The notes: generated by a model not told the origin, from the sequence alone. A stretch of 64,000 bases of DNA from an uncultured Planctomycetales bacterium (GCA_964474085.1 CAYYRJ010000013.1:797-64796), one strand, 5' to 3'. Counted from the stretch's first letter, positions 34,034-51,733 are shown. Program-made: numbers and translations.

Positions 34034-34058
34034 TTAGACGTTGGACGCTGGACGTTGG
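34034..34058. repeat. heptad minisatellite (YTRGACG)n
   Basis: ttagacg ttggacg ctggacg ttgg. Lies between rho and rpmE. Confidence 0.6.
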
Positions 34059-34099
34059 AAAACCAGTAAGTATTTAATGATTAAAAGGAGAACAAAAAA

Positions 34100-34306
34100 A
34101 TGAAAACTGAAATACACCCAAATTACACCGCAACAACCATTACCTGCGCCTGCGGGGAAGTCATTCACACACGTTCGACGAAGCAGAACATCCGTGTCGA
34201 AATTTGTTCCAAGTGCCATCCGTTTTATACCGGCGAGAAAAAGTTTGTGGATTCGGCCGGGCGTATTGAGCGTTTTGAACAACGTTACAAAAAAGGTAAA
34301 AAATGA
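34100..34306 (+). CDS. rpmE: 50S ribosomal protein L31
   Basis: [10 protein letters not shown]-terminus. CxCG...CSKCHPF zinc ribbon. Confidence 0.95.
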
Positions 34307-35391
34307 TCAATTTGGAGAAGCTCAACAAAACCAGAGACCGTTATCGCGAACTGGAAGGGCTCCTCGCCGATGCGACGATCATTGAAGATCAGAAGCAGTA
34401 TCAACGGTATGCCAAAGAATTTTCTTTGCTAACGCCATTGGTCGATACTTTGAAAGAACATGATGCTGTTTTGGCGCAAATTGCAGAGTTAAAAAAACTG
34501 CTGCAAGAAAAGCAGGACAAAGAGTTCGAGTCGCTTATCCGTGCGGAGCTTTTGGATCTGGAAAACCAGGTCGTTGAAATTGAAAAAAAGATCGACGAAC
34601 TTGTCAATCCTCGTCGGGTCGACAAAGATACGGGAGTTATTATCGAAATCCGCGCTGGGACCGGCGGGCAGGAAGCGTCTCTTTTTGCGGCGGATCTTTT
34701 TCGGATGTATTCTCGATATGCTCAGCGTCAGGGTTGGCAAAGTGAAGTGATGAGCAGTCACGAATCGGAAGCGGGAGGTTTTAAGGAAATTGTTTTAAGC
34801 GTTTCCGGGACCGGTGCGGCGCGCCATTTAAAATGGGAAAGCGGTGTCCATCGCGTACAGCGCGTGCCTACGACGGAAGCCTCGGGCCGCATCCATACCT
34901 CGGCGGCTACTGTGGCGGTATTAGAAGAACCCGAAGAAGATGTCGAAATCAAAATTGATCCTAAAGATTTAAAAATCGATGTTTATCGTTCCTCAGGCCC
35001 GGGCGGGCAAAGTGTCAACACGACAGATTCCGCCGTGCGGATGACCCATTTCCCGACGGGAATTGTCGTGGTCTGTCAGGATGAGCGTTCACAGCTTAAA
35101 AACCGCGCCAAGGCGATGCGTGTTTTGCGTGCGAGAATCAAGGACAAGATGGACCAGGAAAATTTTGAAAAGACCAGCAAGGATCGTAAAGCCCAAATTG
35201 GTACCGGTGACCGCAGTGAAAAAATTCGGACGTATAATTTTTCGGACCATCGTGTTACGGATCATCGTATAGGGTTTACGACACATCAGCTGGATAATGT
35301 CATGGACGGCGATTTGGACGATTTGACCAACGCTTTGCTTCGGGAAGAGGACAAAAATTTACAAGAACAACAACAGCAGGCGCAGCAATGA
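34303..35391 (+). CDS. prfA: peptide chain release factor 1
   Basis: GGQ motif (SGPGGQSVN). RF1-type tripeptide (VPTTE) rather than the RF2-type SPF. Confidence 0.9.
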
Positions 35392-36179: not shown

Positions 36180-36186
36180 TATGCTC

Positions 36187-38120: not shown

Positions 38121-39137
38121 ATGGATGCGTATATTCAGAAATTACAAAATCGCCAGGATTTGACAGAAGGCGAAATCCAGGCTGTTATGCGTTTGATCAT
38201 GTCAGGTGATCTGCCGCATCAGTCGATGGCGGCATTTTTGATGGCGCTCAACGAAAAGTCTCCCTCAATTGAGGAGATTACCGGCGCGGCAAAAATTTTG
38301 CGCGATTTTTCGCTCGAAGTTAACACCAAACATCCGGTTGTCCTGGATACCTGCGGAACCGGCGGGGACAAAAAGGGCACGTTTAATATTTCGACGACGG
38401 TGGCTTTTGTCGTTGCGGGTGCTGGTGTGGTTTTAGCCAAACACGGCAATCGATCGATTTCAAGCCGCTGCGGCAGCGCCGATGTGCTCGAAGCTTTAGG
38501 CGTGAATATTAGCATCGATCAAAAATATCTAGGCGAGTGTTTAGATGAAATCGGGATCGCATTTTTGTTTGCACAAAAATTGCATCCGGCGCTCAAAAAT
38601 GTTGCCGCTGTTCGAAAAAGTTTAGGCACAGAGACCATTTTTAATATTCTCGGCCCGTTGCTTAATCCGGCAAAAGCCACGCATCAGATGATGGGCGTTT
38701 ATAGCCGAGATTATGTTGAGCCTTTGGCACGGGTTTTAAAAAATTTGGGGCTGCGCCGAGCTTTTGTCGTACACGGCAAGGACGGGTTAGATGAAGTGAC
38801 GACGACGACACAGACGTTTGTCAGTGAATTTAACGGCCGTGAAATTTTAAGTTATGAAATTGATCCTCTTGAATTGGGTTTTTGTTTGGCCAAGGAATCC
38901 GATTTAAAAGGCGGCGATTTGAATGTTAATGCGGGGATTGTTTTGGACATTTTAAAAGGGGCATCCGGACCGAAACGGGATATTGTCGTCTTAAATGCGG
39001 CTTGTGCTTTGTATACGGCAGAAAAAGTTGCAAATATTTCCGACGGGATTGCCTTAGCGTGTGATTCAATCGATAGTGGCAAGGCTTTGAAAAAATTAGA
39101 CGAGTTGAAAGTTTTTACAAATGGTATCGATTCATGA
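38121..39137 (+). CDS. trpD: anthranilate phosphoribosyltransferase
   Basis: DTCGTGGD and KHGNRS motifs. Start set at ATG 38121. Confidence 0.9.
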   Translation: MDAYIQKLQNRQDLTEGEIQAVMRLIMSGDLPHQSMAAFLMALNEKSPSIEEITGAAKILRDFSLEVNTKHPVVLDTCGTGGDKKGTFNISTTVAFVVAGAGVVLAKHGNRSISSRCGSADVLEALGVNISIDQKYLGECLDEIGIAFLFAQKLHPALKNVAAVRKSLGTETIFNILGPLLNPAKATHQMMGVYSRDYVEPLARVLKNLGLRRAFVVHGKDGLDEVTTTTQTFVSEFNGREILSYEIDPLELGFCLAKESDLKGGDLNVNAGIVLDILKGASGPKRDIVVLNAACALYTAEKVANISDGIALACDSIDSGKALKKLDELKVFTNGIDS

Positions 39138-39925
39138 AACGAGATTTTTTAAAAGAGATCGTCGAGTATAAAAAAGAATTGCTCGCTCAAAAGAGCGGCT
39201 ATTATGCGGCGCTTAAGAAGAACGTCAAAACCTCCCCGCACAGCCGCTACGGTCTTTTTAAAAAAGCCATCGAAAAGCCCGGTCGTATCAATTTGATCGC
39301 CGAAATTAAAAAAGCGTCCCCGTCGGTGGGAATTATCCGCGAGCCTTTTGATTTGACCGGTTTGGCAAGGACGTATGCGGAAAATGGGGCGGATGCGCTT
39401 TCGGTTTTGACGGAAGATAAATATTTTTTAGGCAAACCGACGTATATTAAAAGGGTAAGCGAAGAGGTTCTGTTGCCGGTTTTGACCAAGGATTTTATTA
39501 TTCACGAACATCAGATTTTTGAAACGTTTTGTCAGGGCGCCAGCGCGATTCTTTTGATTGTTGCGATTTTAGAGGATGCTTTGCTCAAGGACTTGATCCA
39601 GGTCGCTTCGGATCTTGATATGGACTGTCTCGTCGAGGTCCATGACGAAAGTGAACTTTTTCGGGCGCTTAAAAGTGGCGCAGAAGTCATCGGGATTAAT
39701 CACCGCAATTTAGCAACACTGACCATTGATTTAAGCGTTAGTGAAAAATTAGTGCCGCAAATTCCTAAGGGAAAAGTGATCGTGGCTGAGAGTGGGATTA
39801 AGACTCATACGGAAATTATGAAGTTGCAAGCATTGGGCGTTAACGCGGTTTTGATCGGGGAAAGTTTTTTACGTTCTGCCGACGTCGGCGCAAAAGTTAA
39901 GGAGATTATGGGGGTTAGGGGATAG
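39134..39925 (+). CDS. trpC: indole-3-glycerol phosphate synthase
   Basis: TIM-barrel IGPS blocks (IAEIKKASPS, INHRNL). Its stop codon lies inside a GGGGTTAGGGG repeat. Confidence 0.9.
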   Translation: MKRDFLKEIVEYKKELLAQKSGYYAALKKNVKTSPHSRYGLFKKAIEKPGRINLIAEIKKASPSVGIIREPFDLTGLARTYAENGADALSVLTEDKYFLGKPTYIKRVSEEVLLPVLTKDFIIHEHQIFETFCQGASAILLIVAILEDALLKDLIQVASDLDMDCLVEVHDESELFRALKSGAEVIGINHRNLATLTIDLSVSEKLVPQIPKGKVIVAESGIKTHTEIMKLQALGVNAVLIGESFLRSADVGAKVKEIMGVRG

Positions 39926-39935
39926 GGGTTAGGGG
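39911..39935 (+). other. canonical G-quadruplex motif (G4-TTA-G4-ATA-G4-TTA-G4) on the sense strand, containing the trpC stop codon
   Basis: ggggttaggggataggggttagggg. Confidence 0.6.
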
Positions 39936-39967
39936 TTGGACGTTGGTGGCTGGACGTTAGACGTTAG
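39936..39967. repeat. heptad minisatellite (YTRGACG)n following a GGGGTTAGGGG tract
   Basis: ttggacg ttggtgg ctggacg ttagacg ttag. Confidence 0.6.
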
Positions 39968-39990: not shown

Positions 39991-40623
39991 ATGTTAAAAG
40001 CTAAGATTTGTGGGATTACGGATACAAAGGATGCTCTATTGGCCGCGTCTTTAGGCGCATGGGCGTTGGGGTTTATTTTTTATAAAAAAAGTAAACGTTT
40101 CATCGGGCCATATAAGGCGAAGAAAATCATTTCTGATTTGCCGCCGTTTGTGACACCCGTCGGAGTTTTTGTCGACCAAAAGCAAGGAGCGGTCAAAGAG
40201 ATCGCGGAGTTTTGCGGCTTGAGAGTATTGCAATTTCATGGTGAGGAAACGCCGGATTTTTGTAAACGTTTTGACAAATACAAAATTATCAAGGCCTTTC
40301 GTGTCAAAGAAGATTTTGATATTAATGTTTTACGTCCGTACAAATCGCTTGCGAGTGCTTTTCTTTTTGACCGCCATGAAGAAGGCGTGCAGGGCGGGAC
40401 GGGCAAAACTTTTGACTGGAAACTGATCAAGGAAGCCAAAAATTTTGGCGTTCCGATCATTCTCTCTGGCGGCATACATTCGAATAATGTCCGTAGCGCG
40501 TTTGAAGAGATCAAGCCTTATGCGGTGGACGTTTCAAGCGGGGTGGAGGATGCTCCCGGCAAAAAAAGCGAGCGCTCGCTAACTGAATTTTTTAGCCAAT
40601 TGGTTCTTCCGGTCTCTGTTTAA
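39991..40623 (+). CDS. trpF: phosphoribosylanthranilate isomerase
   Basis: KICGIT N-terminus. LQFHGEE block. 210 aa. Confidence 0.9.
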   Translation: MLKAKICGITDTKDALLAASLGAWALGFIFYKKSKRFIGPYKAKKIISDLPPFVTPVGVFVDQKQGAVKEIAEFCGLRVLQFHGEETPDFCKRFDKYKIIKAFRVKEDFDINVLRPYKSLASAFLFDRHEEGVQGGTGKTFDWKLIKEAKNFGVPIILSGGIHSNNVRSAFEEIKPYAVDVSSGVEDAPGKKSERSLTEFFSQLVLPVSV

Positions 40624-40923
40624 TGCCATGTGCAAGTTTTATTTACCGACTTGGGAAAGTCCTTTTAGGCTCAATTGTTTTGCGCCTCTATGGCGCCATT
40701 CGCCTTAAAAGGGCTTCCCGAGTCGGGGCTTCATTTGCCATCGCGTTATTTAGCTAGATTTGAAAAATTTTTAAAGAAAATTTGCCTTTCTCGGGGAGTT
40801 TCTTTATACTTATGTGTATCTTATCTGTATTTATCTTTTGTAGCATCTCCATTTGACAGTATTTATTTGTTTTATCTAAAGAGGAAAAACTCTGTGCAGT
40901 CTCTCTTTCATCGAGATAGTCTA

Positions 40924-43704
40924 ATGTTTTTCAGAAAAATAATCAGCAGTTTTATTGTGTTGACGTTTTTGACGTCGCTTGTCGTCGTTCCGGCAGGGGG
41001 CCAGGTTTTTCTGGATGTCGCAACGTCCATTAACGCAAATGCTGGGTATCAGCCCCCCGTACTTTTAGGACTTAAAATCCATCCCGAAAATCCGCTTTTG
41101 TTTGATTTTATCGTCGACCAAGGGCAATCGAAACTTTCGACAGACGAACTAAAAGAGGAAACAACTAAGCTCGTCAAATATTTTCTCGCGGCGTTAACCA
41201 TTCCGGACAAAGAAGTTTGGGTCAACCTTTCGCCGACCGAAAAAGATCGAATTATTCCTGATGTTTTGGGCCAGACGACGATGGGCAAAACGATGCTTGA
41301 GCAGGATTATGTTTTAAAGCAATTGGCCGCCTCGCTCACCAATCCCGAAACGGATTTGGGGAAGAAATATTGGGAGCAGGTTAATGGGGCAAGGACGCTA
41401 GACGTTAGACGTTGGACGTTGGAAAAAACACCCAGCGTCCAGCCTCCAGCGACCAGCGATTTTAACAAGGTTTGGATCATGCCGGAAAAGGCCGAAGTTT
41501 TGGAAAGTAACGGGATTGTTTTGGTTGGCGAAAAGCGGTTGAAGGTGATGCTGGATGAGGAATATCAAGCCGTAGGGGCGTATTGCAATACGCCCCTACA
41601 GAAAAATGTTATTTCCTCCCAAATTTTCCGCACCACCATCCTTCCAACCATCGAAAAGGCCGTCAATGAAGGCAAAGAATTTGCCGACGTGCGTCAGATT
41701 TACAATTCCGTTATCCTCGCCGCATGGTACAAAAAGGCTTTAAAAGAAAGTTTGCTGGGCAAGATTTATACTGACAAAGGCAAAGTTGCCGGTGTTGAAA
41801 CCGACGACAAAACGATGAAACAACGCATTTATGAGCAATATTTAGCCGCCTTTAAAAAAGGCGCGTACAACCTGATAAAAGAAGAAGCCGACGAAAATGG
41901 TGATCTAATTCCGAGGAAATATTTTAGTGGGGGAATTGAGATTGCTGCATTTGGCGATGGGGCCAGGTCTTCATTGACAGAAAGAACCGTTTCATTACGA
42001 CAAGTAGAAGGGAGGATTGAAGGGATTAGTTCCAGCGTCGCTGTGACGGTCCAATTAGCCGCTACTAAAGATGAGTCTGGCGTGGTTTCCAGTGCCGCAA
42101 CGCAAGGAGAAGATGTTATTTTCGCCGCCGCCTCAAACTCTCTTCGACAAGATCCCAGCAGAAAAGTCAGTTATGGAAATACAAAATACCATTTGAGCAC
42201 AGTTATTAAAATTTTAGAAGAACTTGTTAATTATTGGGATGGTCAAGAGGATAATCCTGATAAATTTGCTACTCATGGCGTGCACGGCAAAATAATCACG
42301 AGTGTTCAACTGCTCTCTGCTCCCGGCGTTACTTTTTCGCTTGATGATATCCGTTTTAAATCCATATTTTTGGATAATTTAGTTAAACAGTTGAAAGTTC
42401 AAAATATCAAACGTCTTGACCCGATTAGGCTCTTTCAAGTTTGGGTTTCTCAAGATTTCAAATTAAATTTTGCTATTTCTAATTCTCAGAGAGTTAAAAA
42501 TATTACCATCGAGGATGCTAGGGCGATTTTTTTTAGAGACCTTTTACCGCTTATTAGGGATGAACTTCAAAAGTATTCGGACAATGCTGACCCCCAGCAA
42601 GCCTATTGGAGGACTGTTTCGGAAAGGACATCGGTTTTACTCAGTGGCCCTGTACAAAGAATCCAAGCAGTTTTGGATGCAAGCTATGATAAATTTCATC
42701 AAACAGGACACTTTCATGATTTAAACGCAATTTTATCGGATCCCTCCAGGGGCAGGTTGCGAGAAAGCTTTTCGAATATCCAAAATGTTATCGCCGAGGT
42801 TTTGGGTGACACTCAGAGTTTTGCATCCCAAAAAGCAGTGTTAGTGGGACAGCAAACCTATCCTCAGACAGAGAAAGCGGCCTATGTCAACGAAAGTTTT
42901 ATTCACGCAACACTTGTGAGTGATATTTTTTCAAGTTGGAAACAGAATGTGCGATTTCGAGAAAAACTAGCTTCAGAAACTTCACGAGTAGAAAAGCCAC
43001 TTGTTCAGGTCAAAGGTGTCCATCTGATGCCTGATTTAAGTGTTGCTTTTGAATTACAGGAAGTCAGGTGGAGACAGAACTCGAATGTTTTGAAAACCGT
43101 TAAAGAAACAGCAGCCCAACTAGCAGAAGATAACGGCCAAGCGCCTCGATATTTTCCAGACACGCTTGCCGCAACTGTTGCATATTTGTTTGGAAATGAT
43201 ATCAGTCGCAGCCAGCTTTTAGAACTTAATAGTCGTTTTAGTGAAATTAATATTCAATTGCAAAAAGATCCGATTACGTTTTTTATTGACGAAATGCAGT
43301 TGCAAAGCGGAACAAAAAAAGGATTTGTGGTTACTCGCAGTAAAACGCTCAAATTTTCCGCTTCGAGCGGGGTTGATGACAAGGTGAATGTTGCCTCAGC
43401 GCCCGTCGGAGGGCTTGACCGCCAAGTCGGCGGTATCGACTTTGACCCGACGAGCATGAATTTGCAAATTAAGCGCGACGGACGTGGTGTGCCGCTGCCA
43501 TTGCCGCAACAGAATTTGGAACAGATCAATATTCAGGGCTTGTTTCCCGTTATCATCAACATTACACCAATCAATGCGCAGACTTTGCCGATCTTTTTAG
43601 GGTTTACCCGCCCAAATTCTGGCGGTGGGCAGTCCTTTGAATCTTTTGGCGGGCAAGTGCCCAAAGAACCGGCCAAGGAAATTGAACAAGTCGCGGGGAC
43701 CTGA
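40924..43704 (+). CDS. large secreted protein A (926 aa). Its N-terminal ~400 aa domain is paralogous to protein B. Function unknown.
   Basis: Signal peptide at MFFRKIISSFIVLTFLTSLVVVPAGG. The N-terminal domain aligns with ORF 46345-50502 (WVNLSP...DRIIP; KVWI(M/V)P(E/D)KA). Contains an in-frame REP and an in-frame heptad-repeat hairpin. The ORF-track start 40675 is probably upstream junk. Confidence 0.7.
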   Translation: MFFRKIISSFIVLTFLTSLVVVPAGGQVFLDVATSINANAGYQPPVLLGLKIHPENPLLFDFIVDQGQSKLSTDELKEETTKLVKYFLAALTIPDKEVWVNLSPTEKDRIIPDVLGQTTMGKTMLEQDYVLKQLAASLTNPETDLGKKYWEQVNGARTLDVRRWTLEKTPSVQPPATSDFNKVWIMPEKAEVLESNGIVLVGEKRLKVMLDEEYQAVGAYCNTPLQKNVISSQIFRTTILPTIEKAVNEGKEFADVRQIYNSVILAAWYKKALKESLLGKIYTDKGKVAGVETDDKTMKQRIYEQYLAAFKKGAYNLIKEEADENGDLIPRKYFSGGIEIAAFGDGARSSLTERTVSLRQVEGRIEGISSSVAVTVQLAATKDESGVVSSAATQGEDVIFAAASNSLRQDPSRKVSYGNTKYHLSTVIKILEELVNYWDGQEDNPDKFATHGVHGKIITSVQLLSAPGVTFSLDDIRFKSIFLDNLVKQLKVQNIKRLDPIRLFQVWVSQDFKLNFAISNSQRVKNITIEDARAIFFRDLLPLIRDELQKYSDNADPQQAYWRTVSERTSVLLSGPVQRIQAVLDASYDKFHQTGHFHDLNAILSDPSRGRLRESFSNIQNVIAEVLGDTQSFASQKAVLVGQQTYPQTEKAAYVNESFIHATLVSDIFSSWKQNVRFREKLASETSRVEKPLVQVKGVHLMPDLSVAFELQEVRWRQNSNVLKTVKETAAQLAEDNGQAPRYFPDTLAATVAYLFGNDISRSQLLELNSRFSEINIQLQKDPITFFIDEMQLQSGTKKGFVVTRSKTLKFSASSGVDDKVNVASAPVGGLDRQVGGIDFDPTSMNLQIKRDGRGVPLPLPQQNLEQINIQGLFPVIINITPINAQTLPIFLGFTRPNSGGGQSFESFGGQVPKEPAKEIEQVAGT
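41402..41469. repeat. heptad minisatellite arranged as an inverted pair (long hairpin), in-frame inside the protein A gene
   Basis: aaggacg ctagacg ttagacg ttggacg ttgg, then aaaaaacaccc, then cagcgtc cagcctc cagcgac cagcg. Encodes GARTLDVRRWTLEKTPSVQPPATS. Confidence 0.6.
41572..41599. repeat. REP element embedded in-frame in the protein A gene
   Basis: gtaggggcgtattgcaatacgcccctac, encoding VGAYCNTPL. Confidence 0.8.
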
Positions 43705-44071: not shown

Positions 44072-44078
44072 ATCGCCC

Positions 44079-44381
44079 ATGTCCGAAAAATTATTACGGG
44101 TTTACAAGCCGTTTGATTTGCACAAAGTCAAAGAGCATCTTTTGATTTACGGGGACTTGTCCGGCCAATGCGCGTATTGCCAAAATATGGATGTTAAGTT
44201 GGATATGGTCTCGTGCCCAAATTGCCGCACGGATTTTCGCTACGTGGCTTTTCGCCATGTTCATCATCATATGCCCAAAATTCTAAACATCAGCGCCACT
44301 CGCCATGATTTAACGATCATCGATTACGACGATTACAGCCGTAGCTTAGGCGCCAAAAAAGCAGAGGATTTTTTCAAATGA
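44079..44381 (+). CDS. small zinc-ribbon protein, unknown function
   Basis: CAYC...CPNC Cys4 motif. The ATG lies 7 nt after an extended -10 box. Confidence 0.5.
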   Translation: MSEKLLRVYKPFDLHKVKEHLLIYGDLSGQCAYCQNMDVKLDMVSCPNCRTDFRYVAFRHVHHHMPKILNISATRHDLTIIDYDDYSRSLGAKKAEDFFK

Positions 44382-45517
44382 TCAACGATCAACGTCTTAT
44401 TTCTTTAACCCAAAAAGTGATTAGTTTTAATAGCGAAAACCCGCCGGGCAATGAATTGGCTTTGGCGAATTTTATCGAAGAGGATATGCGCTCTTTGGGG
44501 ATTGAAGTTAAAATTCATACTTTTGAAAAGAACCGGCCCAATATCGTTGCGACCTTAAAGGGGACAGGTCACAACGCGGCTAAGAATTCGGTTTTGCTCA
44601 CCCCCCATTTTGATACGGTTCCCATCGGGGGAGGATGGAAGTTTGATCCGTTAGGCGGCCAGATCAAGGCCGGAAAAATTTATGGCCGCGGGGCAAGTGA
44701 TGATAAAGGAAATTTGGCTTGCTGTATGGAAGTGATGCGCAGTTTGGTTGAGGATAAGGTGAGTCTCCAAAACGATGTGATTATGGCTGCCACCGTCGAT
44801 GAAGAAACAGGTAGCAAGGCCGGGATTATTCCGCTTTTGGATAAGAAAATTTTAAAGCCGGGGTTTGGATTGATTGTTGACTCAGACGAATTTTATACGA
44901 TCATCGCCCAAAAAGGTTTGCTGCATACGCGCATTCAGATTTTTGGCAAGAAAGCGCATGGGGCCTACAATTGGCGGGGGGTCAATGCCATTGAGCAGGC
45001 GGCAGAGGTGATACGGCTTTTAAAGGCGCATCAATTTAAATTTAAAAAGCATGCTCTTTTGCATCCGCCGACGATGAATATCGGCACGATTCGAGGAGGC
45101 GACAAGGTCAATATGGTCGCAGATTTTTGCGAGTTTTCGCTAGACACACGCTTTCTGCCGGGGATGAAATCGTCGGAGGTTTTAGCTCAGATCAAGGCTA
45201 TCGTCAAAAAAGTGACGCCCAAATTTAAAATTATTATCGACGATTTACAGCAGCCTTATGAAATTGCCGGGGAGCATCCGTTTGTAAAAACTTATGTGGA
45301 TACGGCCAAGAAAATGAAAATCCCCGCGCAGGTTAAGGCCAGCGAAGGAGCCACGGTGATTACGTTTTTTAAGAAACACGGAATTCCTGCTTTTGCGACC
45401 GGTTATGGCGCTAAAGGTACGGCGCACACGACCGACGAATACGCCAAGGTTAAGACGCTCGTTAAAGGGGCGAAATTGATGGAAAGGTTTATTAAAGAAT
45501 TTGATCAAAGGGGTTAG
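44378..45517 (+). CDS. M20-family metallopeptidase (ArgE/DapE-like)
   Basis: HFDTVP and GRGASDDKG metal-binding motifs. 379 aa. Confidence 0.85.
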   Translation: MINDQRLISLTQKVISFNSENPPGNELALANFIEEDMRSLGIEVKIHTFEKNRPNIVATLKGTGHNAAKNSVLLTPHFDTVPIGGGWKFDPLGGQIKAGKIYGRGASDDKGNLACCMEVMRSLVEDKVSLQNDVIMAATVDEETGSKAGIIPLLDKKILKPGFGLIVDSDEFYTIIAQKGLLHTRIQIFGKKAHGAYNWRGVNAIEQAAEVIRLLKAHQFKFKKHALLHPPTMNIGTIRGGDKVNMVADFCEFSLDTRFLPGMKSSEVLAQIKAIVKKVTPKFKIIIDDLQQPYEIAGEHPFVKTYVDTAKKMKIPAQVKASEGATVITFFKKHGIPAFATGYGAKGTAHTTDEYAKVKTLVKGAKLMERFIKEFDQRG

Positions 45518-45531
45518 GGGTTGGGGGTTGG
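45510..45531 (+). other. G-rich tract (GGGG-TTA-GGGG-TT-GGGGG-TT-GG) containing the M20 peptidase stop codon
   Basis: Three G4 or longer runs plus a GG. Weaker quadruplex potential than the tract at 39911. Confidence 0.4.
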
Positions 45532-45566
45532 ACGCTGGAGGATGGACGCTAGACGTTAGACGCTGG
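45528..45566. repeat. heptad minisatellite (YTRGACG)n following a GGGGTTAGGGG tract
   Basis: ttggacg ctggagg atggacg ctagacg ttagacg ctgg. Confidence 0.6.
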
Positions 45567-45587
45567 TTAAAGATAAAGAAGAAAAAG

Positions 45588-46334
45588 ATGAAAAAAGAAT
45601 TATTTTATCGAGCCTTGTTAAGTTTGATCATTAGTGTCACATTTTGTCCGATGGCAAGGGCGGCTAATGATGTCAATGACTTTGTCGGCGAGAAAATTAC
45701 CTATTCGATCAAGCAAATGGGCTTTAAGGCCGGCGAGGCGGTTTTAAGTTTTGAAGGCGCTGCGACCCGTGAAAATAAAGATTTTATGCTCATTGTTTTT
45801 AAAGCCAGTGGCATGAATTTTATGGATTCGGAAAAGATTTATGCGGATCCCCAAACGCTTTTTCCGCAAATTGTTGAGCGCGACCTTAATATTTTTGGCA
45901 AGAAAGAGCAGATTGTCGAATACTATGAGCCGCAAAACGGCAAAGTTCGCGTGGTCAAAACAGCGTCGGGAAAGACCACCGAACAGGTGATTACAAAAAA
46001 AGGGGAGCTGGACAATATTTACTGTTTTATTTACCGTTATCGGCGTGACGCTGATTTTAAGATGGGAGAGAGTTTGGCCATCAATCTTCCCACGATGGAT
46101 TTGCGGATTAAGCTGACAGAAAAAGTTGATGTTGCCGCTGGCGGCAAGAATTATCAGGCCTTTTTTATGCAAAGCACTCCGTCAAAATATAAATTGTGGT
46201 TTGATGTCAGCCGGCAAAAGATTCCGCTTCGCATCGACGGCGCTGTCGGTGTAGGCAGCACGACGATGACAATGAAAAGCTACGAAACTAAAAGCGCAGT
46301 CGCGTTTTTGGCCAATGAAGTTTTTAAAAAATAA
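45588..46334 (+). CDS. secreted hypothetical protein (possibly DUF3108-like)
   Basis: Signal peptide MKKELFYRALLSLIISVTFCPMARA. Start set at ATG 45588. Family assignment is tentative. Confidence 0.5.
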   Translation: MKKELFYRALLSLIISVTFCPMARAANDVNDFVGEKITYSIKQMGFKAGEAVLSFEGAATRENKDFMLIVFKASGMNFMDSEKIYADPQTLFPQIVERDLNIFGKKEQIVEYYEPQNGKVRVVKTASGKTTEQVITKKGELDNIYCFIYRYRRDADFKMGESLAINLPTMDLRIKLTEKVDVAAGGKNYQAFFMQSTPSKYKLWFDVSRQKIPLRIDGAVGVGSTTMTMKSYETKSAVAFLANEVFKK

Positions 46335-46344: not shown

Positions 46345-49300
46345 ATGGATATGAAAAAAAAGATCAGCATTTTTATGCTGGCTGTGTTTATGGTGCAGAC
46401 CGTCGTCCCGACGTGTTTTGCGCAAATGGCGCTTGAAAGCCGTCTTTTGCCTACGTCGATGGGGGTGCTTAGCAACCATTTTCAACCGCCGGTTTTAAGT
46501 GCGATTAAGATAGACGCAGCTGATCCGTTTCATTTGGAATTTGTTATTGATCCTGGAACTTCGACGGGAAACGGTGAAGAACTCAAAGGGGAGACGACGC
46601 GGCTTGTTAATTATTTTTTGGCGGCCTTAACATTACCAGAGAAGGACTTGTGGGTTAATTTGTCACCGTATGAGGTGGATCGAATTATTCCTGCTGAATT
46701 TGGGACAACTCAGATGGGCCGCGATCTTTTGGCGCAGGATTATTTGTTAAAACAGATAACGGCTTCTTTGATGGTTCCCACCGGGGACGTTGGCAAAAAG
46801 TTTTGGGATGAAATTAATCGTCAGGTGAGGGCGAAATACGGGCAAGTCGAGATTTCGGTAAACACATTAAATAAAGTGTGGATTGTGCCGGATAAGGCTC
46901 AGATTATTCAGGAGAGAGGCGTTGCTTTTGTCAGTGAGAGCCGTTTAAAAGTTTTATTAGAGTCGGATTATTTGGCGTTTGAAAAAAATGCTCTGCGAGA
47001 AGTCGATAGCCGCAAAGAGGATGTAAAGCAGAAGTCTCTTAACGATCAGGAAAAGACCAAAGAAATTCTTCGAGAAATTGTCCTTCCTGTTCTTGAAAAG
47101 GAAGTTAATGAAGGGCGTAATTTTGCACCTTTGCGTCAAGTGTATCATTCGCTTATTCTCGCGGCATGGTATAAACAAAAAATTAAAAGCGGCCTGCTGG
47201 CAGCGGTTTATGTTGATCAAAAAAAAGTTGCCGGAATTGATAGTGTTGATCCGCAAATGGCTCAGGGAATATGGGCGCAATACGAAGAATTGTTTCGAAA
47301 AGGGGTTTATAACTCTGTCAGAGAAGAGTTGGACCCGGTTTCGCAAGAAATGATTCCGCGCAAGTATTTTATGGGAGGTTTTGGCTTTACTGCTATTGAT
47401 AAGGCGCTTGTTACATCGTCGGGGATTACGTCTGTTCATCGAACATTTGCGGGAATTCTTGCCGGGGTGCAGCTTTTGTCTGCCCTGCCGTCTTTGAGCT
47501 ATGCACAAGATGCCGCAAATACCGATGCGGCAGTTAACCCGGGCCTTGTTATTGAAAAAGTTCCTGCGGCTGACCCGCGATCAGCGTTTGAGCAACAGAG
47601 AAAAGATTATTGGCTTAACGTTGCGCAGTCTGACTCGGATCGCGTTTTTTCTCGCGCCGTTGAGTTTATGGACGAACCGTTTGCAATTGAAATTCTTAAA
47701 GAAGCGGTTAGAAGTGAAAATACTTTGTCCCTTCAGGGAGGCGTTTTTCGTGATGCTTACCGTTATTTGGAATATGAAAAGGGGTGGGAATTTTTTGAGT
47801 GGTTGGCAAAAAATTATGATCGAGCGGGGTTTGTATTGGCCTCACCTGATTTTGCTAAGATAAAATCTCCCGAGCGTGTTCTGGAAATTGTTGCCAGGTT
47901 TTCGTCGGTAGAACTTTTGAATTTTATGAGTAATACGGAGAGTATGTTGAGAAATGAAGAGATGATTCGCCAGATGATAGACAAATCATCGTCGCAGAGG
48001 CTGCGTTTGATAAAGCAGATATCACAGTTGCCGTTAAAGTGGCCAGAAATAAAGTTGATGGCAGCGCTTATTCCAATGATTTTAAACAATGAAATATCAG
48101 TTTTGCAGGCGCAAGAATTGACAGGGGACGTAGACCGGTATATGAAAACTTTGTTTTCGATGTTAAAAAACCCAGCGTATGCCAGTGATCGCGATGCCAT
48201 TATTTTTCGGCTTATTGATTCATATTTTTTGTCTCTTTATTTTTATGGCACGATTTATCCCGCAAAATGGGAGCCGGCCGCTATTGACGCTTACTTGGAA
48301 AATTTTTCGACGCAGGACTTGTATTACTCGTGGGTTGGTTTGGTGCCGGGTGAACTTTATAATACCGTATTTTCCAAGATGATTGAAAAGTTAAAAGCAG
48401 ATTCAGTGAATTTTTATGATCTCCCCGAAAGTTTATTTTTTCGTGTCAATGAATCAATTTTAAACACCACAGATATGCAGAAAAAAGATTTGATGTCGGT
48501 GCTGAGTGTTAGTGATCAATTTAGATTGGTTGATCAACTTTTGAACAGATTCGAGCGGGCGCGCGCAAACAAGAACAGTTCAGTCGAGCTTTTTAAAGCT
48601 GTTTCTGTTTTTTTAGCTGAAATTAACGCGCAGGGATTTCAACCTCAAGGTCGGGAAGCAGTCGAGTTTAACCGCCTTACCGTTAAACATCAAGCGCTTC
48701 TAAACGCTTTTTTAGTTGAGATTGGAAAAGACCCGCAAGCGTTTATTGGGGAATTTAGACGAGTAAAGGACCCGGGTGTATTTGCAAAAGATCCAATCGT
48801 AAAGGTTTTTTCTAAGATTAATAATTTTTCTTTTTCGGGGATGTTAAATTTTAACCAGCAAACTATCTCAACCGATAAACTCCGGCTGGATATGGTTCTC
48901 TTATTAGATGATTTGCTTAAGGAGCGTTTGACCGTAAAAGACGCGGCCGGGATTGTTTTAGACAAAGGTCGTTTTCTTCGTCAATTAAATGACATTGCGT
49001 CCCGCTCTGCGCATTTTGCGGAAACGGGAATCAATAAACGTTTAGGTGAAATTTATATGGAGCTTATCCGCAATATTAATAATTTGCACGAATCACCCGA
49101 CGCTATAAGGTTTAAATCAGTCGAGTCGTTTTCTTCAGAATATCTTTATCGCGTTATGGTTTATGGAGAAGATGAAGTTGTCTATACAACTACTTTTAAT
49201 GGGCTGTTTAACCGTTTTTTGAAGGCTGTCGATGCGGAAGGTATTTCTTTGGATGTTGTTTTGGATAGAGTAAAAGATTTTAAATTTAGAAATTTTTTCA

Positions 49301-50502
49301 GGCTTGCCGTAACGTATGGCAGACAGGAAGAATTTTTGAAAAAAATGAGTCCGCAGAGGCGGAAAGATTTTTTAGTGCGTTTTATTGCCGGTTTAAGTGA
49401 AGAAAAAGATATGGTGTCCGAGGCGGCAATTGTTGCAGATGTGATTAACCAATTGCAGGATGAGCAGTTGGTTCAACCGCTGGCCGAGCTTATCAAAACA
49501 CAGTACCAAAAATTTGAGAACGATCGGCAAAAGCGTATTGTTTATGGTTTGCTTGCCGGATTATTTAGAGATAAACCTGTTTCCGCTGACAGAGAGTGGT
49601 TTGTCCAGATGGGTGAAGAATATAAATTATTGATTAGTAAAGAGTTGTCCTCTGCCCAGCTTTTTGATGCTAGCGGTGAAAATGTTCAGCGTTATGTTTT
49701 TTATGACGATAGCGATGCCAAGGCGTCTTTTGCGCATTTTATTGCCAGCTACAAGAATGATCCTAATTGGCGTACCGTTGCTTACGAGCAGTATGTTGAG
49801 GTAACTTCGGTTTATGGCCACAAGGTAACGATATTAGCCAACAAACCCAGAGATATCGAGAAAAGTAATTTTGCGGTCGATGAAGCTTTCAAGGTAAAAA
49901 ATAAAGTGCCCTCAGTTATTGCTCATCGAGGGCATAGTTATTTTTTCAATGGGACGATAGGCTATGTAACCCCGGATGTTGTTTTTGTTGGCGTAGGAGC
50001 TTGCGGAGGCGCCAAGAATGTCGGTCAGTTATTGGAAAATTCACCGCAAGCCCAGATTGCGGCAACAAGAGGGGTGGGCACGATGAGGATCAATGACCCT
50101 TTGTTTAAGCTGATTAATAATGATATTCGTACGCAAGGCTCTGTGTATTGGGAAAGTGTTTGGACAAGAGCGGAAAAACAGGCATGGAGCAAGACCAATG
50201 AATGGGGCAAGTATGTCGCGCCGCATAGAAACGTCATTGAGAGTTTTTTGAAATCGTATGATAATTTGATGCGATCTTCGGCCAGCTCGACTGTTGGTGA
50301 TTTGGCAACCAAAGGCGGGATTGATTTAAATGCTGTCGACGCGGCTTTGCGTATAAATTCGAGTACTCAAACTGCAGAGCTTGCGATTGATCCGGTATTG
50401 TTCGAGCAATACCGGGTATCGCCCGGATTTTATCCGGAGATTAAATTTATGCGTCCGGTTAAAAATGTGATAGAGTATTTAACCGCAGCGGACACAAAAT
50501 AA
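46345..50502 (+). CDS. giant secreted protein B (1385 aa). N-terminal domain paralogous to protein A. Long alpha-helical middle region. C-terminal His/Cys-containing module.
   Basis: Signal peptide. Roughly 400 aa align with protein A. Internal hydrophobic, signal-like segment (FAGILAGVQLLSALPSLSYAQD). C-terminal region with HRGHSYF...GVGACGG. Confidence 0.7.
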   Translation: MDMKKKISIFMLAVFMVQTVVPTCFAQMALESRLLPTSMGVLSNHFQPPVLSAIKIDAADPFHLEFVIDPGTSTGNGEELKGETTRLVNYFLAALTLPEKDLWVNLSPYEVDRIIPAEFGTTQMGRDLLAQDYLLKQITASLMVPTGDVGKKFWDEINRQVRAKYGQVEISVNTLNKVWIVPDKAQIIQERGVAFVSESRLKVLLESDYLAFEKNALREVDSRKEDVKQKSLNDQEKTKEILREIVLPVLEKEVNEGRNFAPLRQVYHSLILAAWYKQKIKSGLLAAVYVDQKKVAGIDSVDPQMAQGIWAQYEELFRKGVYNSVREELDPVSQEMIPRKYFMGGFGFTAIDKALVTSSGITSVHRTFAGILAGVQLLSALPSLSYAQDAANTDAAVNPGLVIEKVPAADPRSAFEQQRKDYWLNVAQSDSDRVFSRAVEFMDEPFAIEILKEAVRSENTLSLQGGVFRDAYRYLEYEKGWEFFEWLAKNYDRAGFVLASPDFAKIKSPERVLEIVARFSSVELLNFMSNTESMLRNEEMIRQMIDKSSSQRLRLIKQISQLPLKWPEIKLMAALIPMILNNEISVLQAQELTGDVDRYMKTLFSMLKNPAYASDRDAIIFRLIDSYFLSLYFYGTIYPAKWEPAAIDAYLENFSTQDLYYSWVGLVPGELYNTVFSKMIEKLKADSVNFYDLPESLFFRVNESILNTTDMQKKDLMSVLSVSDQFRLVDQLLNRFERARANKNSSVELFKAVSVFLAEINAQGFQPQGREAVEFNRLTVKHQALLNAFLVEIGKDPQAFIGEFRRVKDPGVFAKDPIVKVFSKINNFSFSGMLNFNQQTISTDKLRLDMVLLLDDLLKERLTVKDAAGIVLDKGRFLRQLNDIASRSAHFAETGINKRLGEIYMELIRNINNLHESPDAIRFKSVESFSSEYLYRVMVYGEDEVVYTTTFNGLFNRFLKAVDAEGISLDVVLDRVKDFKFRNFFRLAVTYGRQEEFLKKMSPQRRKDFLVRFIAGLSEEKDMVSEAAIVADVINQLQDEQLVQPLAELIKTQYQKFENDRQKRIVYGLLAGLFRDKPVSADREWFVQMGEEYKLLISKELSSAQLFDASGENVQRYVFYDDSDAKASFAHFIASYKNDPNWRTVAYEQYVEVTSVYGHKVTILANKPRDIEKSNFAVDEAFKVKNKVPSVIAHRGHSYFFNGTIGYVTPDVVFVGVGACGGAKNVGQLLENSPQAQIAATRGVGTMRINDPLFKLINNDIRTQGSVYWESVWTRAEKQAWSKTNEWGKYVAPHRNVIESFLKSYDNLMRSSASSTVGDLATKGGIDLNAVDAALRINSSTQTAELAIDPVLFEQYRVSPGFYPEIKFMRPVKNVIEYLTAADTK

Positions 50503-50525
50503 ACTTTTTTAAATATTATTAAAAC

Positions 50526-51704
50526 ATGGCACTTCCCGATAAATCAGGTCATTTTGGCGAGTTTGGCGGACAGTACGTTCCCGAGACGCTCATGTCCGTT
50601 TTAAATGAGTTGGAGACGACTTTTGCCAAAGCGCGGCGCGACAAAAAGTTTAAGGACGAATTTGCGTATTACCTTAAAGAGTATGCGGGTCGGCCGACGA
50701 ATTTGTATTTGGCCAAACGTTTGTCTAGCCATTTTAAAAATCTCAAAATTTATTTAAAACGCGAAGATTTGCTGCACACTGGTGCGCACAAAATTAATAA
50801 TACGCTTGGTCAAATCATTTTGGCCAAACAGATGGGCAAGACGCGGATTATTGCCGAGACCGGAGCCGGTCAACATGGCGTTGCGACAGCGACCGCCGCA
50901 GCGCTTTTTGGGTTGCAGTGTGAAATTTATATGGGCGCACAGGACATTGAGCGCCAGTCACTCAATGTGTTTCGCATGAAGCTGATGGGTGCTAAGGTTG
51001 TGCCGGTGACCAGCGGCTCGAAGACGCTCAAAGATGCAATGAATGAAGCGATACGCGATTGGGTCACGAATGTCCGCAATACATTTTATATTATCGGCTC
51101 GGTCGCGGGTCCCCATCCCTATCCTTTGATGGTCCGTGAATTTCAATCGGTCATCGGCCGCGAAGCTCGTCGGCAATTTTTCCTTAAGGAAAAGAAACTT
51201 CCCGATTACTTAGTCGCCTGTGTCGGCGGAGGCAGCAATGCGATGGGGTTGTTTCATGCTTTCTTTAAGGACAAGACCGTTAAAATTATTGGTGTCGAGG
51301 CTGCTGGACACGGGCTTAAGAGTGGACAACATTCGGCTGCGATTTGCGCTGGACAAACCGGTGTTCTTCATGGGAGCAAAAGTAAACTTTTGCAAACGCA
51401 CGATGGGCAAATCAAAATTGCACATTCGATTGCCGCCGGACTCGATTATCCTGGCGTAGGCCCTGAGCATTCTTATTATGCGCAGATTGGCCGTGCTCAG
51501 TATGTCGGCGTGACAGACAAAGAAGCGATTGGGGGACTTAAACTTCTTTCGCAGGCTGAGGGGATTATTCCCGCTTTGGAAACAAGCCACGCCATCGGCT
51601 TTTTGTCGCGTTTGGATAAGAATGCTAAGAAAAACTCGACGGTGATTGTTTGTCTTTCGGGTCGAGGGGACAAGGATGTTAATACGATGAAGGAATTGAT
51701 TTAG
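50526..51704 (+). CDS. trpB: tryptophan synthase beta chain
   Basis: [12 protein letters not shown]-lysine motif. GGGSNA motif. Confidence 0.95.
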
Positions 51705-51733
51705 GGACGCTGGACGTTGGTCGCTGGTGGCTA
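51704..51733. repeat. heptad minisatellite starting at the trpB stop codon
   Basis: (ta)gggacg ctggacg ttggtcg ctggtgg ctag. Confidence 0.55.

Follow-up and report, generated by a model that had tools for sequence, protein, structure and literature searches.

Tandem repeats with a period of 7 nt and the consensus YTRGACG are present at five sites that fit within 18 kb of the 64-kb stretch of DNA analyzed (the window), whose host is a Candidatus Omnitrophota bacterium. These arrays, which comprise 3.7 to 5.4 units each, are non-random and form a new local family within a kind of repeat that has already been described; they are not a new kind of element. We consider it moderately probable that they are lineage-specific short dispersed heptad repeats of the STRR or long-SSR class, with a REP-like behavior, and that they are mostly selfish or near-neutral.

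Tandem Repeats Finder (TRF) identified period-7 repeats at 34029-34059 (array 1; GGACGTT, 4.4 copies), at 39911-39937 (GGGGTTA, 3.9 copies) joined to 39935-39967 (4.4 copies; together array 2), at 41393-41423 (4.4 copies) with an inverted arm at 41432-41458 (CCAGCGT, 3.9 copies; array 3), and at 45510-45531 (GGGGTTG, 3.1 copies) joined to 45529-45566 (5.4 copies; array 4). Array 5 (51704-51733) is more degenerate and was not called at a TRF score of 30, and a three-unit pattern fits it with 1 and 3 mismatches. The units are degenerate across arrays, and, as is characteristic of heptanucleotide repeats, they follow each other head to tail with an exact 7-nt period in runs of at least three. A search for three consecutive RGACGYT units with up to 3 mismatches returned 14 matches, all of them in the five array loci, and none in 100 dinucleotide-preserving shuffles. 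The unit is thus present at several dispersed loci above chance, and the recurrence of the heptad at five sites, as stated in the original prediction, was confirmed.

Four of the five arrays are intergenic and located between genes on the same strand. Array 1 (34029-34061, + strand), identified by TRF and pattern match, consists of the units TTAGACG, TTGGACG, CTGGACG, and TTGGAAA in the rho/rpmE spacer; it begins 87 nt past the rho stop (rho ends at 33942) and ends 38 nt ahead of the rpmE ATG at 34100. Array 2 (39911-39967, + strand), in the trpC/trpF spacer, contains four GGGG tracts of the GGGGTTA type, followed by GGACGTT, GGTGGCT, GGACGTT, AGACGTT, and AG. The trpC stop TAG (39923-39925) is found within its second unit, and 23 nt separate its end from the trpF ATG at 39991. 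A similar arrangement was observed for array 4 (45509-45566, + strand), between the genes of an M20 peptidase and a DUF3108 protein, where GGGGTTA, GGGGTTG, and GGGGTT precede GGACGCT, GGAGGAT, GGACGCT, AGACGTT, AGACGCT, and GG. The M20 stop TAG (45515-45517) lies within its first unit, inside GGGGTTAGGGG, and the array ends 22 nt ahead of the likely DUF3108 ATG at 45589. At two sites (39911 and 45510), YTRGACG units are thus preceded by GGGGTTR units. Array 5 (51702-51733, + strand; pattern match), in the trpB/trpA spacer, starts with the trpB stop TAG (51702-51704), directly followed by GGGACGCTGGACG; the units GGACGCT, GGACGTT, GGTCGCT, and GGTGGCT are followed by AG, and the array ends 10 nt ahead of the trpA ATG at 51744. 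Arrays 2 and 5 each have a TAG on either side. A search for promoter-like or terminator-like sites linked to the arrays found none.

The remaining array is an inverted pair located within the gene of a secreted protein (protein A; ORF 40675-43704, with a likely start near 40896-40924). Its left arm (41393-41423, + strand) pairs with the inverted heptad copy of the right arm (41432-41458, - strand), and the predicted fold of 41393-41458 has an energy of -31.8 kcal/mol (z = -3.85), in agreement with the proposal that the copy at 41402 can form a hairpin. Array 3 measures 66 nt, a multiple of 3, and encodes TLDVRRWTLEKTPSVQPPATS in frame; it falls in a loop of protein A that varies among homologues and is missing from paralogue B. 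The in-frame position and the absence from paralogue B correspond to what had been claimed. The same architecture was observed in the related loci L125, L131, and L167, and no informative covariation was detected in the hairpin among the four sequences.

The association of the heptad with stop codons, central to the original prediction, holds in the window and beyond it. In a set of 120 loci from many phyla that carry the window's heptad, the 5' edge of the G-rich strand was located within -21 to +5 nt of the stop of an upstream same-strand ORF in 20 of 47 cases, as compared to ~7.4 expected, and it never coincided with a start codon. In the window, the stops of M20 and trpB are positioned as claimed, whereas the in-frame stop of trpC is the second TAG (GGA TAG, 39923-39925), the first one, in GTTAGG, being out of frame. 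Array 1 (34034) makes no contact with a stop codon. The suggestion that the element inserts at, or supplies, a TAG applies to M20, the only gene at which the array provides the stop; in the array-less relative L129, M20 ends with TAA, followed by a 1-nt spacer to DUF3108. Arrays 2 and 5 sit behind an older TAG, because relatives lacking the arrays end the genes with TAG at the same position: trpC in L126, L132, L129, and L134, and trpB in L129, where unrelated sequence follows. The TAG link is only partly an insertion effect.

There may be a simple reason for the presence of these repeats on stop codons, namely, arithmetic combined with selection. Since 7 is not a multiple of 3, three TAG-bearing units (TTAGACG, GGGGTTA) close all three frames within 21 nt, and an array can therefore replace or abut the end of a gene without giving rise to a read-through tail. 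The M20 stop is array-supplied, and the trpC and trpB arrays lie directly behind the older TAG. One observation speaks against this reading: array starts peak exactly at the stop, instead of being shifted so that the stop lies one or two units inside the array or being scattered behind the stop, and a selection filter accounts for this peak only in part.

The distribution of the arrays among syntenic relatives is patchy. The same spacers can be empty, contain the YTRGACG heptad, contain another heptad, or contain an unrelated hairpin element, and with this graded series one can follow, site by site, how arrays arise, slip, are copied as modules, and decay. L134 (TrpC 88%) has no arrays; its trpC/trpF spacer measures 13 nt, and M20/DUF3108 and trpB/trpA overlap. 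Array 2 is absent from L126, L132, L129, and L134, and the trpC/trpF spacers of L126 and L132 harbor an unrelated inverted-repeat element of ~110 nt. A decayed array is present at M20/DUF3108 of L126, where the stop lies inside AACGTTAGACG. In L136 (TrpC 76%), a different heptad, GTGAARC, was found in the same spacers in both orientations, and trpC ends at a TGA within a unit. Array 2 of L125 and L131 has one GGGGTTA unit fewer than that of the window (three versus four GGGG tracts). The unit number thus differs between close relatives, as is typical of heptanucleotide repeats, which shows one-unit slippage. Furthermore, segments 39917-39967 and 45509-45559 are 88% identical over 51 nt without gaps, and both give -Arg-Gly-stop in the same register, showing that a composite 51-nt module was copied and is present after trpC and after M20.

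The filled and empty sites among relatives and the 51-nt module at two sites are also what one would expect of a small mobile element of the REP/REPIN or MITE kind, moved by a trans-acting transposase that targets TAG. Such an origin would account for the hairpin version (array 3) and for the TAG that brackets arrays 2 and 5. Both TAG donation and in-frame insertion have been reported for REPs, the CGTC on the C-rich strand of each unit is the tag of one REP superfamily, and a genuine GTAG-tagged REP family is also present in the window. However, all copies but one are direct repeats (30 to 57 nt) and not palindromes, the TAG predates the array at two of the three sites, and the change in unit number resembles slippage. 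No transposase was detected among the window ORFs scanned, and comparisons of filled with empty sites revealed neither terminal inverted repeats nor a consistent target duplication. We regard this explanation as improbable. MITEs are characterized by terminal inverted repeats and target-site duplication and typically measure 100 to 400 bp, and the initially noted likeness to them was not supported. REPs and REPINs are defined by a palindromic stem-loop unit of 20 to 40 bp, often in inverted pairs, and by a RAYT (Y1 transposase) in the genome. With regard to the palindromic unit, membership in this group was rejected: only 41393-41458 is an inverted pair, and the spacers containing arrays were predicted to fold no better than shuffled sequences, except for the G-tract stretch and the array 3 hairpin. 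No RAYT was found among the window proteins scanned.

The position of the arrays on polycistronic mRNA raises the alternative that they are multivalent platforms for an oligomeric RNA-binding protein that contacts a YURG or GGA motif each 7 nt, in the fashion of HutP, TRAP, or CsrA, and in this way controls how stable the mRNA is or how the downstream cistron is translated. We consider this fairly unlikely as a general explanation, although several data are consistent with it. In all intergenic arrays of the window, L125, L126, and L131, the G-rich strand is the sense strand, and the arrays of the window and its closest relatives stop 10 to 38 nt short of the next start codon. Unit positions T2 (31 of 32 units) and G4 (32 of 32) are nearly invariant. 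TRAP reads (G/U)AG triplets and CsrA reads GGA. HutP recognizes XAG-N4, i.e., XAG every 7 nt, and HutP and TRAP operators have in common triplets at fixed spacing on single-stranded mRNA (PMC2425495); the HutP model ligand (UUUAGUU)3 has the same 7-nt register as the arrays, and translational roles have been proposed for the TAACTGA and Nostoc heptamer repeats. On the other hand, UAG is present in only 8 of 32 units, the others containing UGG, which would be unacceptable to XAG readers of the HutP/TRAP type, and several units have GGT in place of GGA. A motif search of the window and the relatives' loci revealed no CsrA-like ORF. In sister lineages, the corresponding operon has overlapping genes and lacks arrays, L136 uses another heptad in both orientations, one copy lies within a coding region, and co-directional gene pairs across phyla show no strand preference (17 to 18 versus 19 to 20). 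A more specific proposal is that of an operator conserved in Omnitrophota, at which a putative ring-shaped or multimeric protein would read YURG every 7 nt and tune downstream translation or stability, the lineages having co-evolved their own heptads (YTRGACG; GTGAARC in L136); we judge it to be less probable still. Its register would be HutP-like, and its triplet would differ from that of HutP.

Conservation data bear on the operator idea in different ways. An orthologue of array 1 exists in L126, and none was found in L129 and L134. The array 1 block is identical to L126 at 33 of 36 positions (92%), as compared to 43% at 4-fold sites there, and the other spacer DNA is unalignable. This identity argues for a constraint on the rho/rpmE copy, which, given a conservation far above that of neutral sites, may act as an RNA operator. 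In contrast, non-repeat spacer DNA is equally conserved (96%) between the window and L125, so that this comparison fails to single out the arrays.

A role as G-quadruplex (G4) elements, in which G-rich arrays would form G4 in DNA or RNA and thereby modulate transcription or translation, is very unlikely for the family as a whole. At 39911-39937, four GGGG tracts are separated by 3-nt loops, and the predicted energy changes from -12.3 to -39.3 kcal/mol under a G4 model; in addition, Rehm et al. (PMC4692102) reported that four units are preferred and that repeats are positioned at stop codons. However, array 2 is the only one of the five sites with four G tracts and a four-layer prediction, its orthologues in L125 and L131 have three tracts, the 45510 site yields only a weak two-layer prediction, and arrays 1, 3, and 5 gain nothing under the G4 model. 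Assignment to the G4-forming heptameric repeats was accordingly rejected, as at least four runs of at least 3 G are found only at 39911-39937.

The least probable explanation, which we view as highly improbable, is that of DNA-level protein-binding arrays, such as iterons or regulator sites, or of phase-variable contingency repeats. Direct repeats can bind proteins cooperatively, and certain promoters contain heptads to which regulators bind, such as TTTTGAT at ctxAB, according to the part of the source available. The arrays are nevertheless located after stops inside operons and not in promoters, their neighbors are housekeeping genes, the 7-bp period is out of helical phase, and the degenerate units disfavor frequent switching. 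There is no context of a replication gene or origin; the window as a whole has a GC skew of +0.136, and its predicted genes are on the + strand, with two exceptions. Iterons are direct repeats of about 17 to 22 bp beside a replication initiator gene or origin, and the suggested resemblance to them failed to hold for a 7-bp unit next to rho, rpmE, trp genes, and peptidases. Contingency SSRs are perfect repeats of surface or virulence genes, located in the promoter or the 5' coding region. They were rejected as candidates, as the units are degenerate and follow the stops of housekeeping genes, and the intragenic copy retains the reading frame.

The wider distribution of the heptad agrees with the reading as dispersed heptad repeats. 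The 120 loci contain 372 period-7 arrays with 165 distinct heptad units. At 100 of them the heptad is intergenic, 3' ends are preferred, and only 5 of 72 gene pairs are divergent, a mainly non-coding location that is characteristic of heptanucleotide repeats. In viral contigs, composition-matched permuted heptads accounted for 44, 43, and 23 stretches, versus 20 for the window's unit. Because permuted heptads are as common or commoner, the YTRGACG unit is not special. A second metagenome scan retrieved no contig of the window's lineage.

The original prediction had recognized no described family. This stands for the unit itself, since no description of YTRGACG was found in the literature searched, but not for its class. 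The GGGNATC and GGGGA(C/T)T repeats of Xanthomonas and Nostoc are 7-nt units, usually in ~4 copies, dispersed and mostly non-coding, with unit numbers that vary between relatives and with inverted pairs (Rehm et al. 2015, PMC4692102); for GGGNATC, G4 that modulate transcription or translation were proposed. To this type belong the GGGGTTR parts at 39911 and 45510, whereas YTRGACG has no G tracts and no predicted G4, the host phylum is another one, and G tracts and GGACGYT blocks together form the duplicated module. TAACTGA, present in marine Beggiatoaceae, Cyanobacteria, and Bacteroidetes with a scattered phylogenetic distribution, occurs as 2 to 6 direct heptamer copies, many intergenic and some in ORFs, adjoins housekeeping genes, including those of ribosomal proteins, and has a proposed but not demonstrated post-transcriptional role (MacGregor 2015, PMC4679880). 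The window arrays are likewise heptamer direct repeats beside housekeeping genes; however, TAACTGA precedes start codons by no more than a few nucleotides and overlaps with the ribosome-binding site, whereas the window arrays start at the upstream stop and leave 10 to 38 nt for a normal purine-rich site. Cyanobacterial STRR and the general excess of heptanucleotide long SSRs are marked by period 7, genome-specific unit flavors, adjacent unit types, and a proposed origin by slippage (Mazel 1990; Mrazek 2007, as summarized elsewhere). The 120 loci show the same picture; STRR can be long and very abundant, in contrast to five short degenerate arrays in 64 kb. In Geobacter metallireducens, GGACCGG/GGGACCG elements of ~4 tandem heptads are spread over 49 intergenic and intragenic sites, amino acid biosynthesis operons among them, and were given the annotation of putative regulatory elements (Aklujkar et al. 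2009, PMC2700814); the unit differs, and no relation to stop codons was reported in the text consulted. Where genes are unidirectional or convergent, GTAG- and CGTC-tagged REPs are found <20 bp past the 3' end of the upstream ORF; their GTAG end often provides a TAG stop, and in-frame intragenic copies encode 20 to 30 residues (Di Nocera et al. 2013, PMC3733652). They share with the window arrays the small size, dispersal at 3' ends, TAG donation, and an in-frame copy, and differ in being 20- to 40-bp palindromes with a defined stem and loop. In their habits, the window arrays thus match what has been published on heptad repeats and REPs, which occur where neighboring ORFs are co-oriented or convergent, at most 50 bp from the stop or across it, donate TAG to ORFs, and include in-frame intragenic copies (PMC4692102, PMC2700814, PMC3733652).

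As dispersed heptad repeats, the arrays change in unit number through replication slippage, and whole modules are copied to new sites by a putative copying mechanism. Copies would persist only where harm is small. One such place is the transcribed spacer that follows the last codons of a gene and precedes the ribosome-binding site of the next; another is a surface loop of a secreted protein that tolerates an in-frame copy. In our opinion, most copies would be selfish or near-neutral passengers without a required function, with the side effect that cistrons that once overlapped become separated; the rho/rpmE copy may have gained a role in the rpmE leader. Among the long simple repeats of many bacterial genomes, those with heptanucleotide units are the most frequent, and the present locus adds the phylum Omnitrophota to their hosts. 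For annotation, caution is advised, as an array that lacks a stop in one frame can deceive gene-calling programs; ORF 45501-46334, for example, extends DUF3108 upstream through array 4.

Tandem Repeats Finder located heptad arrays at four loci in the window, and a fifth, more degenerate one was recovered by pattern matching only, which confirmed the original prediction of repeats at five sites. Four of the arrays occupy short spacers between genes identified by Pfam. Array 1 (34029-34059, GGACGTT x4.4) lies between rho (32566-33942) and rpmE (34100-34306), which have prfA as a neighbor; array 2 (39911-39937, GGGGTTA x3.9, merging into 39935-39967, x4.4) between trpC (39134-39925) and trpF (39991-40623), listed together with an EPSP synthase gene; array 4 (45510-45531, GGGGTTG x3.1, merging into 45529-45566, x5.4) between the genes for an M20 peptidase (44378-45517) and a DUF3108 protein; and the degenerate array 5 (51704-51733) between trpB (50526-51704) and trpA (51744-52529). 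Array 3 is located inside the gene of protein A (40675-43704), a 1009-aa ORF without Pfam match, and consists of a run at 41393-41423 (x4.4), a 9-nt A-rich loop, and an inverted array at 41432-41458. Three consecutive RGACGYT units (up to 3 mismatches) were matched 14 times in the window, always within these five loci, versus 0 times in 100 dinucleotide-preserving shuffles. The 32 pooled units gave the consensus Y-T-R-G-A-C-G, with near-invariant T2 (31/32) and G4 (32/32), and G (24/32) or A (8/32) at position 3.

Read from the sequence, the G-rich strand of the unit runs is the + strand at all five sites; this strand also holds every predicted gene of the window except two, and the GC skew of the window is +0.136. 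The distance from array end to the next start codon is 38 nt for rpmE, 23 nt for trpF, 22 nt for DUF3108, and 10 nt for trpA. We found no promoter-like or terminator-like sites linked to the four spacer arrays and no Rfam match at gathering score at any array, and a permissive Rfam scan of the rpmE leader gave only a chance-level match (E = 0.76). Array 4 has one open frame, so that a mechanical ORF call lengthens the DUF3108 N terminus upstream to TTG 45501 (277 aa, with 45501-45588 as the added region); homologues of 240 to 247 aa in contigs L126 and L129 indicate ATG 45589 as the start. Heptad arrays can thus produce false N-terminal extensions in annotation. In array 5, the degenerate units GCTGGTGG spell the Escherichia coli Chi octamer (51723-51730; also at 58044) on the presumed leading strand, and its reverse complement occurs in the C-rich arms of contigs L125 and L131; this match to the E. 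coli Chi, which may not be that of the host phylum, is probably a coincidence.

The first array units contain, or immediately follow, the stop codons of trpC (GGA TAG, 39923-39925), M20 (GGT TAG, 45515-45517), and trpB (ATT TAG, 51702-51704), in a window where TAG accounts for 12 of 55 stops. Because the two periods, 7 and 3, have no common factor, every reading frame of a pure GGACGTT run yields one cyclic peptide, GRWTLDV (NVQRPTS from the opposite strand), without a stop. When position 3 is A, the unit contains TAG (TAA on the opposite strand), and such units close every frame within 21 nt, a property that comes straight from the sequence. A codon-usage or peptide artefact was ruled out as the source of the repeats, as only one array of the five lies in coding sequence. 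Target-site duplication of TAG was suggestive around arrays 2 and 5 and inconsistent at the remaining sites, and was rejected.

The association with stop codons extends beyond the window. A scan for the three-unit RGACGYT pattern, using one genome per species, retrieved more than 120 loci, some of them inverted pairs, and the matches listed included Verrucomicrobiota, Bacteroidota, Gemmatimonadota, Acidobacteriota, Planctomycetota, Cyanobacteria, and Gammaproteobacteria. According to a crude ORF caller applied to 120 loci among the matches listed, 100 arrays were intergenic, with flanking genes that were convergent in 25 to 30 cases, co-directional in 17 to 20 per strand, and divergent in only 5. 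In these matches, 20 of 47 cases had the 5' edge of the G-rich strand between -21 and +5 nt of where an upstream ORF on that strand stops, versus about 7.4 expected under uniform placement in the gap, and 0 of 31 had this edge at a start codon. Mostly, it was the first unit that helped form the abutted stop (xT-AGACG, TA-AGACG, TGA-GGACG), not the second or third. Stops are also abutted by control heptads in viral contigs, each chiefly on one strand, so the stop-codon link, which the original prediction had noted at three genes, is a general property of such arrays.

Recurrence across phyla does not make YTRGACG special. Among the matches listed, period 7 predominates among tandem repeats (372 arrays, 165 distinct units), and composition-matched permuted heptads were found in 44, 43, and 23 stretches of viral contigs versus 20 for RGACGYT; recurrence is therefore not evidence of conserved function. 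Any heptad occurs at about this rate, and the phenomenon is one of heptad repeats generally, with genome-specific flavors. A metagenome scan with the composite pattern GGACGYTGGWGGMTGGACGYT yielded 29 loci, mostly on unrelated high-GC contigs, and none from Omnitrophota relatives. One 26-kb viral contig (IMGVR_UViG_3300042474_001676; L173, L174, L179) contained six separate RGACGYT x3 matches, showing that phage or prophage genomes can be dense in this heptad.

We compared orthologous spacers in contigs of the same gene order, found via TrpC homologues with identities of 94% (L131), 93% (L125), 90% (L132/L133), 88% (L126-L128 and L134/L135), 84% (L129), and 76% (L136/L137). The source names of protein A and TrpC homologues assign the host to Candidatus Omnitrophota. 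The sole public contig with an exact match, L001, is the same genome with N gaps as the only difference, and added no strain variation. At rho|rpmE, the window and L126 share the position of their array; L129 and L134 have none, and L136 carries another heptad, AAACGTG, beginning directly after the rho stop. The trpC|trpF array is shared by the window, L125, and L131, the latter two having one GGGGTTA unit fewer, a difference that is, on sequence grounds, attributable to slippage. This spacer is 13 nt in L134, and in L126 and L132 it holds an unrelated, heptad-free inverted-repeat element of ~110 nt in opposite orientations. The element (L126, 10793-10938; L132, 3940-4060; L133, 1455-1575) has inverted terminal repeats, tttgggRaNyctc...gagRNttccccaaa, and looks MITE-like.

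These relatives allowed us to refine the proposal that the repeat inserts at, or supplies, a TAG. trpC ends with TAG in L126, L129, L132, and L134, at the position seen in the window in the first three and with a TrpC two residues longer in L134, so this TAG is older than the array; its stop in L136 is TGA within a GTGAAGC unit. At trpB|trpA, L129 has TAG followed by unrelated sequence, and the two genes overlap in L134. The M20 site differs: the gene ends with TAA before a 1-nt spacer in L129 and overlaps DUF3108 in L134, which argues that the window array replaced the last M20 codons and supplies the TAG. The proposal thus holds for M20, but at two of the three sites (trpC and trpB) the TAG is older than the array. 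For the same reason, targeting alone does not account for the link; REP-like transposition targeted to TAG we regard as quite improbable. In L126, M20|DUF3108 contains a decayed array with the stop within AACGTTAGACG. In L136, GGTGAAR units come after what looks like a second, downstream M20 3' end (...gaatttgatgag), which corresponds in position to the ...gaatttgatcaaa ahead of the window array, and the annotated M20 stop (TAG) is ~100 nt upstream; this 3' end (...gaatttgat...) is duplicated just ahead of the array. The L136 heptad family, GTGAARC / AAACGTG, occupies the same spacers in both orientations (4897-4929, 8379-8408, 11512-11539, and 14034-14078) and is also present in L137. Given the empty or overlapping spacers of relatives, the ancestral spacers appear to have been compact. 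Gain, resizing, decay, and loss of arrays have followed, with lineages placing different heptads in the same permissive spots.

Self-BLAST aligned 39917-39967 with 45509-45559 at 88% identity over 51 nt without gaps, and both copies contain the string AGGGGWTAGGGGTTRGGGGTTGGACGYTGGWGGMTGGACGYTAGACGTTAG. Positions 7-9 of this module are the stop codon at both sites, and TrpC and M20 each end in -Arg-Gly-stop. As independent slippage cannot yield the same idiosyncratic order of imperfect units, the alignment indicates that the whole module was copied. We lean towards a lineage-specific heptanucleotide family that is resized by slippage, copied as modules, and retained where harmless. Slippage, as seen in the GGGGTTA difference, alters unit number, modules are copied whole, as seen at trpC and M20, and arrays would be kept where a protein loop tolerates them or in transcribed spacer right behind a gene end. 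The link with TAG would result from stop-bearing units and selection against read-through. To iterons, to which the original prediction had likened the repeats, or phase variation we give almost no weight.

The main rival, which we consider unlikely, has a putative multimeric protein reading the arrays as an RNA operator at 7-nt intervals. It would fit the sense orientation of the arrays in the window, their proximity to ribosome-binding sites, the conservation of array 1, and the precedent of HutP with its 7-nt register (PMC2425495), but sister operons are free of arrays, L136 has another heptad in both orientations, strand bias is absent across phyla among the matches listed, and most units have UGG and not XAG. 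No CsrA motif turned up when all six frames of the window and of the relatives' loci were searched. The conservation of array 1 stems from the comparison with L126, where 33 of 36 positions of its block are identical (binomial P about 1e-9), versus 43% of 4-fold sites and unalignable ordinary spacer DNA (46%); array 1 thus looks constrained. Array 4 is decayed in the same comparison (63% identity in aligned columns). Relative to L125 and L131, arrays are 94 to 98% identical, versus 59 to 71% for 4-fold sites in trp genes and 56 to 57% in protein A. However, the apparent significance for arrays 2 and 3 is undercut by the non-repeat trpF|A spacer, which is 96% identical there, so this test does not single out arrays and only the deeper comparison for array 1 is left standing. 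Folding of spacer RNA was no better than in shuffles (z = 0.3, -0.5, and 0.1; -2.7 for M20|DUF3108). A G-quadruplex model gave a strong gain at 39911-39937 (-39.3 versus -12.3 kcal/mol), but only there, and the orthologues have only three G tracts; G4 elements thus cannot explain the family, and we judge them very improbable as its basis.

Array 3 was borne out as an in-frame inverted pair, encoding TLDVRRWTLEKTPSVQPPATS and folding at -31.8 kcal/mol (z = -3.85). The paralogue of protein A, protein B (46345-50502, 1385 aa), has no heptad array at this position and a loop 9 residues shorter. The loop, between W(D/E)xVN and NKVWI, differs in length among homologues of the family. The window, L125, and L131 all have the hairpin, and P0003 (L167, another assembly; 53% identical) has the same array-loop-inverted-array architecture; it is absent from P0001, the closest homologue listed (73%), and the rest of the best 120 homologues listed. 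The P0002 gene carries other heptads (CTAACCC, GACGCTG) at different positions. Covariation across four hairpin sequences amounted to one compensatory pair and was not informative, and a protein-based metagenome scan with protein A gave 30 pattern matches, of which 0 were confirmed. The genes of A and B are inserted in the trp cluster only in some lineages: in L129 and L134, trpF is directly followed by a 100-aa ORF and then M20, and L125 (2007-11045) has three A/B-type genes consecutively. Their N-terminal domain has ~955 homologues, all of them Omnitrophota where a source is named. Between trpF and protein A, non-coding sequence (40624-40895) is 96% (258/268) identical to L125, versus only 57 to 71% for 4-fold sites of flanking genes, and L131 lacks its first ~130 nt; this sequence probably functions as a 5' region, either promoter or long leader, common to the large secreted paralogues.

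Full-text literature searches found no paper containing a YTRGACG repeat. The original prediction had recognized no described family, yet the class has been described. Among long simple repeats, heptanucleotides are reported to be the most abundant in most genomes, with polymerase slippage proposed (Mrazek 2007), and cyanobacterial STRR heptamers were already known. TAACTGA forms 169 repeat sets adjoining housekeeping genes (MacGregor 2015, PMC4679880), and 49 four-heptad GGACCGG elements are annotated between and inside Geobacter genes (Aklujkar 2009, PMC2700814). The heptamers of Rehm 2015 (PMC4692102) avoid divergent gene pairs, differ in unit number among relatives, and sometimes form inverted pairs. 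The proximity of arrays to stops agrees with these heptamers and with REPs, which lie <20 bp behind upstream ORFs, often supply the TAG stop through their GTAG ends, and encode 20 to 30 residues when intragenic and in frame (Di Nocera 2013, PMC3733652). For each behavior that had stood out in the original prediction, the literature thus offers a counterpart; what is new is the unit and the host phylum, and no new element class is indicated. The comparative series is instructive, and frame closing offers a tidy account of the stop-codon habit.

A second repeat family in the window, the palindrome (GTA)GGGGCGTATTGCAATACGCCCC(TAC), has 8 copies with up to 3 mismatches versus 0 in shuffles (41570-41601, 58291-58312, 59371-59392, 60070-60091, 60446-60467, 62493-62514, 63220-63241, and 63596-63617), and its sequence fits the GTAG-tagged REP type. 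The first copy keeps the reading frame of protein A, and the peptide it encodes, GAYCNTPLQ, recurs in P0001 and P0004; the TAG stop (62491-62493) of ORF 62023-62493 is the TAG of a GTAG end. A segmental duplication of ~3.15 kb (60010-60788 / 63160-63938, 95.5% identical over 780 nt; 59445-59805 / 62605-62964 and 58171-58272 / 61906-62007, 77 to 90%) includes two 178-aa ORFs (60181-60717, 63331-63867) and REP copies. Upstream of a 123-aa ORF (44010-44381), which has no Pfam match and overlaps the M20 peptidase gene, is a c-di-GMP-I riboswitch aptamer (RF01051; 43762-43949, + strand; 35.1 bits versus a gathering score of 35). Finally, the 293-nt spacer between trpA and an M16 peptidase gene contains a perfect 20-nt tandem duplication (TTTCGCGGGAATGACAAAAT x2) at 52605-52643.
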